64,000 nt of DNA from Bacillota bacterium (GCA_016280895.1 JAEEHM010000060.1:2338-66337); one strand, 5' to 3'. Counted from the stretch's first letter, positions 21,993-57,423 are shown. The notes: a model not told the origin generated them from the letters alone. Made by a program: numbers and translations.

Positions 21993-23870
21993 TTGGCAAC
22001 TAATGAATATACAAATGTTGCGGAACTTATAAAGGATTATTATGATGCGCCCGTTGGTTCATATTTGAATAAATCAATAAATATTAACAATGTTACTTTA
22101 ACATGTGATGTTTATAGGGTGGCAAATAATACTGTTTTAACATCATCTGTTTTTACAGGTTGTACTGGAAATGATGCAAATACACAGATAATTATAGGTA
22201 ACAATATGTCTGTTGCAAGTGGAACTACGCTTACTCCACCATATAGATGTAAGGGTATTTTTATTGGTGATGTTGGTACTTTTACTAATAGTGGAACTAT
22301 CTCAATGACAGCTCGTGGTGCCAAAGGTGCAGGCAAAAACATCAAATTAACTAATAGTTATTCAATTAGTGCTAATGGTGGTTCGGGTGGTGCAAGCGTT
22401 ACTGCTATAAAACAGAATGGTAATAATGGTTCTTCTCCTTCTAGTGGAATTTTATCTTGTGGAGGCGGAGGTTCTGGTTCTGTTTCTACTAATAATCCCG
22501 GAGGTGGTTCTTTTAGTAAAACATCAGGTGCCGGTTCTGCTGGAACTTCCTTTTCAGGCGGTTCCGGTGGTGGTGGAACAGGTTGGCATGGTTATGGAAC
22601 TGGAAACCAAGAAGCTACTAGTGCATCATCTAATGGTGGTGCTGGTGGTTCCGGTGGTGCAGGTTATCAATCTAATGTAGGCGGCACTGGTGTTGCTTCG
22701 GGTGGCGCAGGAAATCCTGCTGGTGAAGATTATTTACCAAGAACAGGCTCTTCGGGTCTTCCTTCATTTATAAATAATTCTCCTAATGGAACGGGAGGAT
22801 TAATAGTTATTTTAGCAAGCAAAATAGTATCTTCGGGAAATATAACAGCTAAGGGAAGTCAGGCTAATTCTATTCAAACTGCGAGTACATCTTATGATAA
22901 TGTTAGGTATGGTGTGGGTGGCTCTTCTGGTGGAGGTTGTATAGTTCTTTTATCTAGAGAGGCAAACATAACAGGAACTAATTCTGTAGCAGGCGGTATT
23001 AGCGGAACATCTAAAGGAACTACCGGTGGCGCAGGTGGTGCAGGTGTGTATGCTTCGTATATAGTTGATGACCTAATCTTGGCAAATCTACCAGTTGAGA
23101 TTGCTATTTCAGATACAAATCACCTCGATAATATCGAGCCATCAGAAGGTGTACGTTTACTTGGTATGATGGATGATGATGAATTGTATTATGAAATTAT
23201 GGGTACTCGTCATAGTTCGGGTTCAGGACATATATTAGAAGATGAAGAAGGAACTGCGCTTACAAAGCGTAAAGCTCTTGCTATTAACTCCCCTCTTACT
23301 GTTGAAGATGATTCTGTTAATGAAAAAACTGATTTAGGTGTTGATACAGATGCAGATTTAAGTTCATTTCCTATTCCACAAGGCGAAGCTGGAACAAGAG
23401 GTGTTCCTGTAGGAGCGGTTATTAATTTTTTTGGTGATAGTGCGCCTGATGGATATTTAGCATGTGATGGTGCTGAATATAATAAAGCTGATTACATCGC
23501 CTTATCTGCTCATCTTGCAACATTATCTACTGCAAGTCAATATGTAGGTTCAACTTCTGATAAGTTTAAAGTACCTGACTTACGAGGTGAATTTTTAAGA
23601 GGTACAGGAACTAATGGACATACTAATCAAGGTAATGGAGCGTCCGTAGGTAGCCATCAGGACGCTACTGTAATACCAACTGTTGATAAAGATTTAAATT
23701 CAAATTGGGTAAATATAAAAAAGGGTTCTGTAGATAATATGGATAAAACTTTTAGTGGTAGTCAAACTGCATTACATACTGGTGCAGGTGGACAATGGAG
23801 TAGTTCTGATATATATGCTTACTCTACTCGCCCTACTAATACGTCTGTTATGTATTGCATTAAATATTAA
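21993..23870 (+). CDS. large tail fibre / receptor-binding protein: Gly-rich domain plus tail-collar domain (TTG start)
   Basis: TTG follows AGGGGTGG. Long GGSGG/GGAGG tracts (about nt 22380-23050). The C-terminal PVGAVINFFGDSAPDGYLACDG...FKVPDLRGEFLRGTGTNGHT matches a collar domain. Confidence 0.75.
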   Translation: MATNEYTNVAELIKDYYDAPVGSYLNKSININNVTLTCDVYRVANNTVLTSSVFTGCTGNDANTQIIIGNNMSVASGTTLTPPYRCKGIFIGDVGTFTNSGTISMTARGAKGAGKNIKLTNSYSISANGGSGGASVTAIKQNGNNGSSPSSGILSCGGGGSGSVSTNNPGGGSFSKTSGAGSAGTSFSGGSGGGGTGWHGYGTGNQEATSASSNGGAGGSGGAGYQSNVGGTGVASGGAGNPAGEDYLPRTGSSGLPSFINNSPNGTGGLIVILASKIVSSGNITAKGSQANSIQTASTSYDNVRYGVGGSSGGGCIVLLSREANITGTNSVAGGISGTSKGTTGGAGGAGVYASYIVDDLILANLPVEIAISDTNHLDNIEPSEGVRLLGMMDDDELYYEIMGTRHSSGSGHILEDEEGTALTKRKALAINSPLTVEDDSVNEKTDLGVDTDADLSSFPIPQGEAGTRGVPVGAVINFFGDSAPDGYLACDGAEYNKADYIALSAHLATLSTASQYVGSTSDKFKVPDLRGEFLRGTGTNGHTNQGNGASVGSHQDATVIPTVDKDLNSNWVNIKKGSVDNMDKTFSGSQTALHTGAGGQWSSSDIYAYSTRPTNTSVMYCIKY

Positions 23871-55242: not shown

Positions 55243-55285
55243 AAATAAAAAACCCTCTGTATCTATATATTCTAGATACAGAAGG
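55243..55285 (-). terminator. rho-independent terminator (minus strand), just upstream of the polymerase start
   Basis: The minus strand reads CCTTCTGTATCTA-GAATATA-TAGATACAGAGGG followed by TTTTTTATTT. The single imperfect pair is G-U on the minus strand but C-A on the plus strand. Confidence 0.65.
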
Positions 55286-55305
55286 TTTATATATAATTAT
55301 AATTG

Positions 55306-55314
55306 TGCTATAAT
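55306..55314 (+). promoter_or_regulatory. extended -10 promoter of toxin cassette 1
   Basis: TGcTATAAT. The predicted +1 (about 55322) coincides with the start of the 5' complementary arm. Confidence 0.5.
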
Positions 55315-55397
55315 CTCTCTTGGGTATTACTAACAGGCGGTTGCCTCTTCACAGAAGAGGTTTTCACCTCTTCGAGTATTCAAGGAGGTGATGTAAA

Positions 55398-55487
55398 ATG
55401 GTTTCTTATAATGAATTGTTTTTATTTGGTACGATGCTAATTAGCTTTGCAGCCCTCATTATTACAATTTGTAATAAAAAGAAATAA
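55398..55487 (+). CDS. type I toxin candidate 1 (29-aa hydrophobic peptide, BsrG/holin-like-toxin style)
   Basis: MVSYNELFLFGTMLISFAALIITICNKKK. GGAGG (55384-55388) lies 9 nt upstream. Opposite strand to all neighbouring genes; paralogs at 56899 and 57227. Confidence 0.6.
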   Translation: MVSYNELFLFGTMLISFAALIITICNKKK

Positions 55488-55564
55488 CCGCCCCGGTCTG
55501 TAAACTAGGCGGTTATCTTTTCATAATCACTTATGTAGGCAACCAATGTTGGTAATGCCTTTCT
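55472..55564 (-). ncRNA. candidate antitoxin antisense RNA 1 (ends approximate)
   Basis: Predicted start about 7 nt after the minus-strand -10 (55571-55576). Hairpin AACCGCC/GGCGGTT (55486-55514) is followed on the minus strand by ATTTCTTTTTATT. Overlaps the toxin 3' UTR and last codons. Confidence 0.4.
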
Positions 55565-55570
55565 TTTATT

Positions 55571-55599
55571 ATAATATCATTTAAATATTATTATTGCAA
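55571..55599 (-). promoter_or_regulatory. convergent promoter for antisense RNA 1
   Basis: Minus strand: TTGCAA (55599-55594), a 17-nt spacer, then TATTAT (55576-55571). Confidence 0.5.
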
Positions 55600-55606
55600 A
55601 TTTTAT

Positions 55607-55774
55607 CTATTCAGACACTATTTCCACCGAATTTTTAATAATCTTAAAGTCGAACCAGTTCGGTTCGTTTTCCTGTTCAATATATAATAATCCCTTATTA
55701 ATAGCTTCTTCATAACTATCTGCTAAAACTTTAACGTGGGTTGTTCCTTTAATATTCATTTCCCATTGTTTCAT
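55607..55774 (-). CDS. small hypothetical protein (55 aa, below cutoff)
   Basis: MKQWEMNIKGTTHVKVLADSYEEAINKGLLYIEQENEPNWFDFKIIKNSVEIVSE, with AAAGGGGA SD. Confidence 0.45.
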   Translation of the reverse strand: MKQWEMNIKGTTHVKVLADSYEEAINKGLLYIEQENEPNWFDFKIIKNSVEIVSE

Positions 55775-55804
55775 TATATTAATCCCCTTTCAAACAATTT
55801 ATTA

Positions 55805-56707
55805 TTAATCGTCTTTATTTTCGCTATCATATTGTCCATATTTAATATATGTATCTTGTCTTTTATCATATGCAACAGTCTTATTTTCTTTTCTTCTATC
55901 TTCATGGACATCTAATTTTTTATAATGCTTTTCATATAATTCTTGGACATCTGAATTTCCACCTAAAAGATTTATATAAGAATAATAATCAATTTCAATT
56001 TTTTCTCGTTCTTCGGGTGTTACGAATCCATTGTTTAAACAATTATACAAAGTTTTTTTCAAACTAATTTTTTTATCATTCTTTTCTGATTCTTGTAATT
56101 TTGCTAACAAATCAACTGTTTCATTACATTTATCAGTAATAACATTTATTTTACTCTCATGTTCTTCTTGAACTTTTTTAATGTCATTAATAGTATTTAC
56201 AATTATTGGTCTAAAATCATTTGAATTAACTATATCGTGATTAATTGCTCCTTTAATTTCCGCTATATCTTGAATTGTATTAACTGTATGAGATTCTGAT
56301 AAATTTACTTTATTAAATATTGCATCTGTTTCTTTTGGAATTAATATCCAATCATCAATACAAATTGCTATGATTTGACCTAATAACGGTACAAACAACA
56401 TATTTAAAATTATGTTTCCACTTGTTGTATTAATCATTAATAAAAAAATGTATGAAACAATAAATGAAATAATAATTTCCAAACCGATATGATTTAATAT
56501 TATTCCTCTTTGTTTAATAAATTTTTCCTCTTTAAAAAATTTTATTTTTGCACTTTTAAAAATTAATAAAGTTCTTAGAAAAAACATTATAAGTAATGAA
56601 ATACATAATTCAATTGATACTGTTAAAGCAACTGTTCCTGAATTTGTTATTTTTCCCATATGTTCAAGAAAAGAAAAAATTTTTTCAATAGTCATTTTTG
56701 TCACCAT
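55805..56707 (-). CDS. membrane protein of unknown function (3-4 TM N-terminal half, soluble coiled C-terminal half)
   Basis: 300-aa ORF with hydrophobic helices in residues about 25-120. Flanked on both sides by the toxin cassettes. Confidence 0.5.
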   Translation of the reverse strand: MVTKMTIEKIFSFLEHMGKITNSGTVALTVSIELCISLLIMFFLRTLLIFKSAKIKFFKEEKFIKQRGIILNHIGLEIIISFIVSYIFLLMINTTSGNIILNMLFVPLLGQIIAICIDDWILIPKETDAIFNKVNLSESHTVNTIQDIAEIKGAINHDIVNSNDFRPIIVNTINDIKKVQEEHESKINVITDKCNETVDLLAKLQESEKNDKKISLKKTLYNCLNNGFVTPEEREKIEIDYYSYINLLGGNSDVQELYEKHYKKLDVHEDRRKENKTVAYDKRQDTYIKYGQYDSENKDD

Positions 56708-56740
56708 CCAAAGTTTTTGTGTCTCTCTATATATATTCTC

Positions 56741-56773
56741 AAAACAAAAAAAAAGATACCTTCACAGGTATCT
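56741..56773 (-). terminator. rho-independent terminator (minus strand)
   Basis: The minus strand reads AGATACC-TGTGAA-GGTATCT followed by TTTTTTTTTGTTTT. Overlaps the -35 of the cassette-2 toxin promoter. Confidence 0.65.
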
Positions 56774-56789
56774 AAATGTTTGCTATAAT
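56761..56789 (+). promoter_or_regulatory. promoter of toxin cassette 2
   Basis: TTCACA, a 17-nt spacer, then TATAAT with an extended -10 TG (56781-56782). The predicted +1 (about 56797) is the start of the 5' arm. Confidence 0.55.
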
Positions 56790-56898
56790 CGTATACGAGC
56801 TACCAAGATGGTAGGCGGTTAGCCTCTAACTAGGGTACTGATAACCCTATTCAAGATAATTCGTCTTAGAGCGAAAATACTTGTTGAGGTGAATGTTT

Positions 56899-56988
56899 AT
56901 GAGCGATTATGAACTCTTATCATTGATATTAATGATTCTTGCAATCATTATTCCATTGATTATTGAACTAATAAAAGCAAATAGATAA
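56899..56988 (+). CDS. type I toxin candidate 2 (29 aa)
   Basis: MSDYELLSLILMILAIIIPLIIELIKANR. GAGGTG (56886-56891) lies 7 nt upstream. Confidence 0.55.
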   Translation: MSDYELLSLILMILAIIIPLIIELIKANR

Positions 56989-57071
56989 GCCGCCCTTGTC
57001 TGGAAAATATAGGCGGCTTTCTAAAGCTAATTTTGTTTTTCTGGCTAACCGTCTACTGGTAGCTCTTTTGT
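56970..57071 (-). ncRNA. candidate antitoxin antisense RNA 2 (ends approximate)
   Basis: Starts downstream of the minus-strand TATTAT (57083-57078). Hairpin GCCGCC/GGCGGC (56989-57017) is followed on the minus strand by a U-rich stretch. Confidence 0.4.
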
Positions 57072-57077
57072 ATATAT

Positions 57078-57106
57078 ATAATAATCTTAATAACTAAACT
57101 TGTCAA
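57078..57106 (-). promoter_or_regulatory. convergent promoter for antisense RNA 2
   Basis: Minus strand: TTGACA (57106-57101), a 17-nt spacer, then TATTAT (57083-57078). Confidence 0.6.
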
Positions 57107-57112
57107 ATCATA

Positions 57113-57142
57113 TTGCAAAACCATTATTTTGTTTGTTATAAT
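57113..57142 (+). promoter_or_regulatory. promoter of toxin cassette 3
   Basis: TTGCAA (57113-57118), an 18-nt spacer, then TATAAT (57137-57142) with an extended -10 TG. The predicted +1 (about 57150) is the start of the 5' arm. Confidence 0.55.
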
Positions 57143-57226
57143 CTTGCATGAGCTACCAAGATGGTAGGCGGTTAGCCCTCGCCAGAGGGTGTCTATCCCC
57201 TCTGAATATAAAAGGGGGTGATGCTA

Positions 57227-57313
57227 TTGGTTACACATGGTGAAATGTTTACATATACACTAGTTTTAATCGGTTTAGCAACATTGGTTTACAATGTGAC
57301 AAAAAAGAAATAG
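57227..57313 (+). CDS. type I toxin candidate 3 (28 aa, TTG start)
   Basis: (M)VTHGEMFTYTLVLIGLATLVYNVTKKK. A TTG start 8 nt after GGGGG gives an N-terminus that aligns with copy 1 (MV[ST][YH]xE[LM]F). The ATG at 57221 is too close to the SD. Confidence 0.5.
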   Translation: MVTHGEMFTYTLVLIGLATLVYNVTKKK

Positions 57314-57387
57314 CCGCCCTATCCTGATAAGCTAGGCGACTATTGTTCCTATTTATCGGGCTAACCGTCTATCGGTAGCTCTTTTGT
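57300..57387 (-). ncRNA. candidate antitoxin antisense RNA 3 (ends approximate)
   Basis: Starts downstream of the minus-strand TATTAT (57399-57394). The minus-strand hairpin AGUCGCC/GGCGGCU is followed by AUUUCUUUUUU. The same hairpin has a C-A mismatch on the + strand. Confidence 0.4.
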
Positions 57388-57393
57388 ATTTCT

Positions 57394-57421
57394 ATAATAT
57401 CATAATTATTTAATTTTGCAA
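57394..57421 (-). promoter_or_regulatory. convergent promoter for antisense RNA 3
   Basis: Minus strand: TTGCAA (57421-57416), a 16-nt spacer, then TATTAT (57399-57394). Confidence 0.5.
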
Positions 57422-57423
57422 AT

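Follow-up and report, generated by a model that had tools for sequence, protein, structure and literature searches.

Three tandem prophage cassettes with paired mRNA ends, probable type I toxin-antitoxin modules of the bsrG/SR4 design

The 64,000-nucleotide (nt) stretch of a Bacillota genome that was analyzed here (GCA_016280895.1, JAEEHM010000060.1:2338-66337; called the window in the following) carries three tandem cassettes, which we consider, with a probability of roughly 78%, to be prophage-borne type I toxin-antitoxin modules of the bsrG/SR4 design. Each of them is predicted to specify a toxin mRNA of about 245-275 nt, which is transcribed from its own promoter and encodes a membrane peptide of 28-29 amino acids (aa), and a convergent antisense RNA that would serve as antitoxin. 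The first ~25 nt of the toxin mRNA would pair with the last ~25 nt to form a long-range helix, P1, closing the molecule and burying both ends. The two arms of P1 covary among homologous cassettes, and the departures from perfect complementarity reveal selection on one strand, that of the toxin mRNA. The mechanism is not novel, as the design has been proven for bsrG/SR4 of Bacillus subtilis; the locus is of value for the covariation support that it brings and for the wider range of the design.

The helix between the mRNA ends and its covariation

A sequence-only reading of the window had described the complementary mRNA ends of the three cassettes, and comparison with the sequence confirmed all its positions and bases. 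The 28-nt element GAGCTACCAAGATGGTAGGCGGTTAGCC is present at both 56797-56824 (cassette 2) and 57150-57177 (cassette 3). The 3' arm of cassette 2 is GGCTAACCGTCTACTGGTAGCTC (57043-57065), from which the 3' arm of cassette 3 (57359-57381) differs at two bases (..TCTATCGG..), with retention of pairing in a slightly shifted register. In cassette 1, GGTATTACTAACA (55323-55335) pairs with TGTTGGTAATGCC (55547-55559) and GGTTGCC (55339-55345) with GGCAACC (55538-55544). P1 thereby consists of 14+8 bp in cassette 1; in cassettes 2 and 3 it has 8+15 bp, with 5 nt of the 5' arm bulged out. Taken by themselves, the arms of cassettes 1, 2 and 3 form duplexes of -32.7, -38.8 and -37.9 kcal/mol, respectively. 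For each of the three cassettes, the minimum-energy fold of the whole mRNA closes the 5' and 3' ends, with z-scores of -6.2, -7.55 and -7.2, and none of 200 dinucleotide shuffles folded as well; the predicted occupancy of P1 is ~80%. The earlier observation that the arms of cassette 1 differ in sequence, yet are complementary to each other, was borne out, and with those of cassettes 2 and 3 they do not pair (-15 to -23 kcal/mol). The arms of cassette 1 are orthogonal to those of cassettes 2 and 3, which share their arms. An alternative local 5' hairpin, CUACCA-AGA-UGGUAG, was confirmed as well (-7.5 kcal/mol).

The arms of cassettes 2 and 3, which are identical on the 5' side and differ at 2 bases on the 3' side, yield -37.9 to -38.8 kcal/mol in either combination, and judged by their sequences the P1 strands and the 5' parts of the antitoxins of these two cassettes could cross-react. 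Their stop-codon loops differ, which may supply specificity between cassettes 2 and 3.

BLAST yielded a single relative with the same layout, the human-gut phage contig L061, in which the outer helix (GAGGGAAAC/GUUUCCCUC) is wholly different from that of the window and the differences are compensatory. This one useful match, MT835489, came from BLASTN against phage and plasmid records, with none among the plasmids. A BLASTN search of 57 genomes of the same family with the 3' region returned short AT-rich noise only, and TBLASTN with the cassette 1 peptide gave no match. Because L061 revealed conserved motifs, IMG/VR was scanned with two patterns, AAGAAATARCCGCCC, which spans the Lys-Lys-stop codons together with the first strand of the stop-codon stem, and GGTAGGCGGTTAGC, from within the inner 5' arm. 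Restriction to matches with a short hydrophobic open reading frame (ORF) left 55 cassettes, from which 31 representatives were drawn by arm sequence. In nearly all of the 55 cassettes, the best duplex between leader and tail begins 3-8 nt past the -10 box of the toxin promoter and stops 3-12 nt before a promoter on the reverse strand.

The claim that covariation supports a long-range 5'-3' helix, which had been derived from the three local copies, holds for dozens of homologous cassettes. Cognate arms reached -38.8 ± 6.3 kcal/mol, compared to -24.6 ± 6.8 kcal/mol for arms taken from different cassettes and -20.2 kcal/mol for shuffled 3' arms. The cognate arm was the top partner in 18 of the 31 representatives, and in the remainder it was nearly always beaten by close relatives only. 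In alignment A2, which comprises 33 distinct arm pairs of the subfamily to which cassettes 2 and 3 belong, the helix spans 25 pairs and is 92.6% paired; 11 pairs vary on both sides (49 cells), and 7 of the 9 pairs of the outer helix are compensatory. None of 500 column shuffles attained any of the five measures, and pairing fell to 25-45% when the 3' partner was moved by 1-3 columns. RNAalifold, applied unprompted to 16 full-length homologues, recovered P1, the stop-codon stem-loop (SL3) with AU-to-GC changes, and the contact between the Shine-Dalgarno (SD) sequence and its anti-SD partner.

The wobble pairs within P1 allow the selected strand to be identified. Read on the mRNA strand, A2 contains 88 G·U but only 8 A·C combinations, the outer helix alone 15 versus 2, and the set of 31 representatives 96 versus 2. 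An inverted repeat acting in the DNA, or copying of a 5' module, would yield both kinds equally, and the G·U excess therefore points to selection on pairing in the plus-strand RNA, i.e. the toxin mRNA, and not in the DNA. The local 5' hairpin (CUACC/GGUAG) is 94% paired in A2, and its changes are all wobble-compatible but one-sided, since the search pattern had fixed its 3' half; as a conserved structure, this hairpin is suggestive but not proven.

Antisense RNA, proposed mechanism and competing explanations

The sequence-only reading had let an antisense RNA begin with the complement of the 3' arm, in agreement with the conserved reverse-strand promoter 3-12 nt from this arm. The median score of this promoter is 12.5 of 13.5, compared to 8.5 for the opposite strand of the same stretch and 7.5 for shuffles, and a score of at least 11 was reached in 48 of the 55 cassettes versus 0% of the shuffles. 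According to folding, the predicted antisense RNAs consist of a 5' hairpin and a strong terminator with a U-tract. Competition between this RNA and the toxin 5' end for the 3' arm, which had likewise been proposed, is compatible with the duplex energies. The perfect duplex between antisense RNA and 3' arm is 7-10 kcal/mol more stable than the wobbled and bulged P1, so that strand displacement would be thermodynamically downhill.

For 29 of the 31 representatives, the predicted unpaired probability of the SD sequence is at most 0.2 in each of the three states considered (free, antisense-bound and nascent). For the free mRNAs of the window the values are 0.06-0.13, and blocking the antisense target lowered them to 0.01-0.06, a small effect in the same direction as in bsrG. 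Since the SD is held by a local hairpin irrespective of whether P1 is open or closed, P1 is unlikely to be the main translational lock, unlike in hok and AapA1.

By analogy with SR4, the following sequence of events can be envisaged. A convergent promoter behind the 3' arm would give rise to an antisense RNA of ~90 nt, the 5' part of which would be an exact complement of the 3' arm and the terminator of which would be the complement of the stop-codon stem-loop of the toxin mRNA. The antitoxin would make an initial loop-loop contact at this stem-loop and then zip into the 3' arm, thereby ousting the wobble-weakened and bulged 5' arm. The resulting duplex would be a substrate for RNase III and be cleaved, and the freed 5' end of the mRNA could refold into its local hairpin and become open to 5' nucleases. 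The SD, sequestered by its separate local hairpin, would remain so, or even more so, after antitoxin binding. A protective role of P1 would fit with the behavior of bsrG, whose mRNA is reportedly refolded by heat and then decayed by RNases Y and J1. The three-way structural switch that had been proposed for the window is thus, in its principle, the known mechanism of bsrG/SR4, for which both P1 and its opening by the antitoxin have been probed (Jahn & Brantl 2013, PMC3834814); it is not new, and for the window it would apply by analogy.

Several results weigh against the assignment to the bsrG/SR4 design. The window cassettes were found exclusively in DNA runs, the one RNA run carrying relatives only, so that the transcription starts, the 3' ends and the antisense RNA are predictions. 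Predicted SD accessibility barely differs between the P1-closed (0.06-0.13) and the antisense-bound state (0.01-0.06). As A2 was chosen with the inner-helix pattern, its 5' inner strand is invariant by construction and independent two-sided covariation comes from the outer helix only; moreover, the cells of A2 derive from related sequences and are phylogenetically non-independent. The outer helix and the comparison of cognate with non-cognate arms are the cleaner evidence for selection on P1. At the peptide level, cassette 1 scored 11.9 bits (E 0.21) with the Pfam family Hol_Tox (PF16935, cut-off 23.3), the peptides of cassettes 2 and 3 did not match this family, and a profile comparison with BsrG by hhalign was weak (probability 25%). 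The Rfam model of the BsrG RNA (RF01412, gathering score 55 bits) matched neither the window, even at E up to 10, nor the relatives L395, L166, L212 and L061. BsrG itself is a Hol_Tox member with 34.5 bits, and an SPbeta-type locus scores 185 bits with the Rfam model. Hol_Tox was matched by 9 of 23 peptides from cassettes with the same architecture (best E 6e-6), and in view of the weak profile match to BsrG, homology to bsrG relies on such intermediates and on the shared architecture. The cassettes are outside the curated Pfam and Rfam families and constitute a compact, divergent, prophage-borne relative of bsrG/SR4.

As an end-to-end helix is a hallmark of hok and AapA1 mRNAs, and 5'-3' long-distance interactions are among the descriptors used in T1TAdb, P1 could also be a fold-back lock, with 3' trimming yielding a translatable mRNA that would be the real target of the antitoxin. 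The predicted P1 occupancy of ~80% would suit such a lock. We regard this explanation as improbable, since the SD is sequestered locally whatever the state of P1 and opening of P1 even lowers its predicted accessibility, since the antisense RNA is directed against the 3' arm itself so that trimming would remove part of its target, and since bsrG, the studied relative, needs no processing step (PMC3834814). Of the precedents invoked in the sequence-only reading, hok and AapA1, the P1-type helix between 5' and 3' ends is indeed present, but the closest precedent is bsrG/SR4 of the B. subtilis phage SPbeta. Slightly less credence still is due to a function centred on termination, in which the 3' arm would chiefly be an intrinsic terminator, the 5' arm would tune termination or read-through co-transcriptionally, and P1 would be a by-product. 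The local fold of the 3' arm (-6 to -10 kcal/mol) and the U-tract that follows it in the window make the arm a plausible intrinsic terminator, and a U-rich tail after the arm occurs in the window and in 13 of the 31 families. However, this local 3' hairpin is 82% paired in A2 without covariation beyond that of the shuffles, whereas P1 covaries, and the other 18 families lack the U-tract after the arm but retain P1. Furthermore, bsrG has a separate terminator and yet P1 as well (PMC3834814).

The symmetry of the whole cassette, in which promoter and arm are mirrored by arm and promoter, the near identity of the toxin and antitoxin 5' ends, and the frequency of tandem cassettes would also be expected from an inverted repeat that acts at the DNA level, as a protein-binding or recombination site or as terminal repeats of a mini-element, or from concerted copies of a 5' hairpin, with ends that are unpaired in the RNA. 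This is very hard to reconcile with the strand bias described above, as the departures from complementarity are nearly all G·U on the toxin mRNA strand. In addition, the bulge is retained in the 5' arm only, and the arms begin at the predicted transcription start and not outside the promoters. We therefore favor type I modules of the bsrG/SR4 design, which likely act as addiction or maintenance modules of the prophage.

Cassette features, genomic setting and distribution

Within each cassette, an extended -10 promoter (TGnTATAAT) is followed by a leader of 75-100 nt, a strong SD and a hydrophobic ORF of 28-29 codons, which ends in KKK in cassettes 1 and 3. The 3' half contains a G+C-rich stem-loop across the stop codon, a spacer, and an element of ~23 nt with a U-rich run; in the window cassettes, a minus-strand promoter (TTGaCA-17-TATTAT) lies 5-11 nt past this element. 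The features are listed below, with the basis of the assignment in brackets.

55286-55314, plus strand: cassette 1 toxin promoter, TTTATA-17-TATAAT with TG extension (sequence)
55322-55346, plus strand: cassette 1 P1 5' arm, GGGUAUUACUAACAGGCGGUUGCCU, beginning 8 nt past the -10 box (fold, duplex energy)
55364-55391, plus strand: cassette 1 anti-SD/SD hairpin, UCACCUCUU ... AAGGAGGUGA (minimum-energy fold; SD unpaired probability 0.06)
55398-55487, plus strand: cassette 1 toxin ORF, 29 aa, MVSYNELFLFGTMLISFAALIITICNKKK (weak Pfam Hol_Tox match, E 0.21)
55484-55516, both strands: cassette 1 stop-codon stem-loop (SL3 of the mRNA); its minus strand is the predicted antisense terminator, with a U-tract that complements the KKK-stop codons
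55537-55560, plus strand: cassette 1 P1 3' arm, AGGCAACCAAUGUUGGUAAUGCCU, followed by UUUCUUUU (fold, duplex energy)
55571-55599, minus strand: cassette 1 antisense promoter, TTGCAA-17-TATTAT (sequence)
55476-55564, minus strand: cassette 1 antisense antitoxin RNA of ~90 nt with 5' hairpin, spacer and terminator, ends predicted (fold, z -5.4)
56761-56789, plus strand: cassette 2 toxin promoter, TTCACA-17-TATAAT with TG (sequence)
56797-56824, plus strand: cassette 2 P1 5' arm (sequence, fold, duplex energy)
56899-56988, plus strand: cassette 2 toxin ORF, 29 aa, MSDYELLSLILMILAIIIPLIIELIKANR, from the second ATG (SD spacing and homologues starting with MSDYEIF)
56987-57019, both strands: cassette 2 SL3 and predicted antisense terminator stem-loop (fold)
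57043-57065, plus strand: cassette 2 P1 3' arm, followed by UUUUGU (sequence, fold, duplex energy)
57078-57106, minus strand: cassette 2 antisense promoter, TTGACA-17-TATTAT, 11/12 matches (sequence)
56980-57071, minus strand: cassette 2 antisense RNA, ends predicted (fold)
57113-57142, plus strand: cassette 3 toxin promoter, TTGCAA-18-TATAAT with TG (sequence)
57150-57178, plus strand: cassette 3 P1 5' arm, the first 28 nt identical to cassette 2 (sequence, fold, duplex energy)
57227-57313, plus strand: cassette 3 toxin ORF, likely with TTG start, giving 28 aa, MVTHGEMFTYTLVLIGLATLVYNVTKKK (compare homologues starting with MVTYADMFTY); an in-frame ATG at 57221 is an alternative start
57310-57343, both strands: cassette 3 SL3 and predicted antisense terminator stem-loop (fold)
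57358-57381, plus strand: cassette 3 P1 3' arm, followed by UUUUGU (sequence, fold, duplex energy)
57394-57422, minus strand: cassette 3 antisense promoter, TTGCAA/TTTGCA-16/17-TATTAT (sequence)
57302-57387, minus strand: cassette 3 antisense RNA, ends predicted (fold)

The Lys-Lys-Lys-stop codons (AAAAAGAAATAA/TAG) correspond, on the other strand, to the U-tract of the predicted antisense terminator (55476-55487 and 57299-57313, as well as 605-617 of L209). The same bases would thus encode the basic C-terminal tail of the toxin and the terminator of the antitoxin, which may explain the strong conservation of AAGAAATARCCGCCC.

The three cassettes are located on the plus strand among minus-strand early genes of a prophage, which encode an integrase, a SleB-type hydrolase, an ERCC4 nuclease, a DnaE-type polymerase, a helicase and an exonuclease. 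The nearest relatives of the polymerase are found in Clostridioides phage pCD1602_4, Thomasclavelia phages and large Bacillus phages. The source assembly is a metagenome-assembled genome (MAG) of 1.8 Mb with ~30% G+C, and metagenomes of goat and bovine gut contain DNA of the window. No additional copies were detected when this assembly was searched with the cassettes by BLASTN, and the cassettes were missed by a six-frame search of the same genome with Pfam Hol_Tox. A hairpin with a perfect stem of 16 bp and T-runs on both sides (55250-55288), situated between the minus-strand polymerase gene's end and the promoter of cassette 1, looks like a bidirectional terminator that would insulate cassette 1. 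Cassettes 1 and 2 are separated by a minus-strand gene (55805-56707) for a protein of 300 aa with an N-terminal multi-pass hydrophobic region, the C-terminal part of which matches phrog_4257, a family without assigned function; an ORF of 55 aa (55607-55774) comes next after this gene. The motif AGGCGGTT is present once outside the cassettes (22556-22563), its other four copies in the 64-kb window all being inside cassettes, with a chance expectation of 0.42 copies.

With respect to expression, contigs from one bovine metatranscriptome represented close relatives of the window cassettes only. The cultured strain Ruminococcus callidus ATCC 27760 carries two tandem copies (L395 60-960), and their cassette bodies were covered by contigs of four RNA runs, from pig gut, mouse gut, wastewater and one unlabelled source, while the DNA between the two cassettes was uncovered in the same four runs. 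These contigs carry no strand information and are interrupted at the repeated arms; they show expression of the cassette family, but not transcript ends. Being cultured, with two copies that are covered by contigs from RNA runs, R. callidus is a convenient experimental system. Tandem pairs are frequent in the cassette family and were also seen in L104, L109, L166, L349, L366, L391 and L393.

A scan of species-representative genomes identified carriers among Oscillospiraceae, Ruminococcus, Acutalibacteraceae, Ruminiclostridium, Clostridium and MAGs of other Clostridia, and additionally in one Selenomonas MAG and one Coriobacteriaceae MAG. A review from 2019 lists txpA/bsrG-like systems for a few Bacillus species and one Paenibacillus species only (PMC6562991), so that a phage-borne clade in gut Clostridia is a real extension of the range, and the papers that we searched for such a clade contained no description of it. 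In L094, L103, L122 and their relatives from IMG/VR, an extra local hairpin (e.g. GCCACCAGCAAUGGC) splits the 3' arm between the halves that pair with the 5' arm, and the U-tract after the arm is absent. In cassettes of this type the toxin mRNA must therefore end elsewhere, and the 3' architecture is variable across the family.

It appears to us an evenly balanced question whether the cassettes form a large, undescribed clade of bsrG-type modules in phages of gut Clostridia and related Bacillota with the following economy of design. In the subfamily of the window, a single element of ~25 nt would have three roles, as 3' strand of P1, as intrinsic terminator of the toxin mRNA and as template for the 5' hairpin of the antitoxin, and the lysine tail of the toxin would also encode the U-tract of the antitoxin terminator. 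The G·U wobbles and the bulge in the 5' arm would be retained because they allow the antitoxin always to out-compete the helix formed in cis.

Since the cassettes are missed by the Rfam BsrG model and the peptides of the window remain under the Pfam cut-off, such cassettes are likely left unannotated. A covariance model built from cassettes of the window type would permit their systematic annotation. The NCBIfam families ComI and PepG1 gave weak matches only, and the peptides were assigned to neither of them. ComI (NF052249) was weakly matched by cassette 3 (E 0.014) as well as by 6 of the 23 family peptides. ComI is a competence inhibitor of 30 aa from the B. subtilis plasmid pBS32 and, judged by these matches, may itself be related to type I toxins of the cassette type.

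Comparison with known type I systems

The hok/Sok system of plasmid R1 in Escherichia coli and aapA1/IsoA1 of Helicobacter pylori share with the window cassettes the long-distance interaction of the toxin mRNA's 5' end with its 3' end. In hok and aapA1, pairing of the ends holds the mRNA translationally inert until the 3' end is trimmed, while in the window the SD is held by a local hairpin. The antisense RNAs of hok and aapA1 target the 5' region, whereas the predicted target in the window consists of the stop-codon stem-loop and the 3' arm only. Both systems belong to Gram-negative hosts, and their peptides have no similarity to the toxins of the window. The prophage modules of Clostridioides difficile (e.g. 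CD0956.2/RCd10 and CD0977.1/RCd11) resemble the cassettes by description in being phage- or prophage-borne, often with several modules per prophage. Their toxins, of 30-56 aa, are hydrophobic in the N-terminal part and have a lysine-rich tail, and according to a review they share no sequence similarity with the B. subtilis toxins (PMC6563280).

Also likened by description, bsrE/SR5 and bsrH/as-bsrH from the P6 prophage and the skin element of B. subtilis encode toxins of 29-30 aa, the size found in the window, and their antitoxins overlap the 3' end as they are predicted to do here, but are longer (163-200 nt). The mRNA structures of bsrE and bsrG were described as strikingly similar (PMC6562991).

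The closest likeness is to bsrG/SR4, whose toxin is likewise a small, Lys-tailed membrane peptide that is borne by a prophage and encoded by an mRNA with P1 between its ends, an SD within a local hairpin, and a stop-codon stem-loop whose complement is the antitoxin terminator, with a U-tract complementing the KKK codons. In the SPbeta-type bsrG locus, we found the same order of parts, with KKK-stop codons followed by a stem-loop complementary to the SR4 terminator, and a minimum-energy fold of the mRNA with closed ends as well. P1 of bsrG, formed by nt 1-35 and 232-262, was established by structure probing, nt 1-33 become single-stranded when SR4 is bound, and SR4 binding extends the SD helix from 4 to 8 bp, which inhibits translation in addition to RNase III-dependent decay (PMC3834814). 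A convergent antisense RNA that reaches across the 3' end, with the 3' strand of P1 included, is common to both, for the window as a prediction from the sequence, and release of the 5' strand upon antitoxin binding, as it occurs in bsrG, would apply to the window by analogy. In contrast to the window cassettes, where the 3' arm is directly followed by the U-tract, bsrG has a separate terminator, SL4, after P1. SR4 has 183 nt, starts further downstream and has a non-complementary 5' stem-loop, whereas the antisense promoter in the window adjoins the 3' arm and the predicted antitoxin of ~90 nt has a 5' hairpin complementing this arm. The peptides of the window (28-29 aa, below the Hol_Tox cut-off) are also shorter than BsrG (38 aa). 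So far, the evidence for P1 and its opening by the antitoxin came from a single B. subtilis mRNA that had been probed, and bsrE was reported to be similar. The window locus and its phage-borne relatives add natural covariation as evidence for the bsrG-type helix, together with selection on the mRNA strand. With hosts among gut Clostridia and other Bacillota instead of Bacillus and Paenibacillus (PMC6562991), they carry the design beyond a few Bacillus species into phages of anaerobes from gut and rumen.

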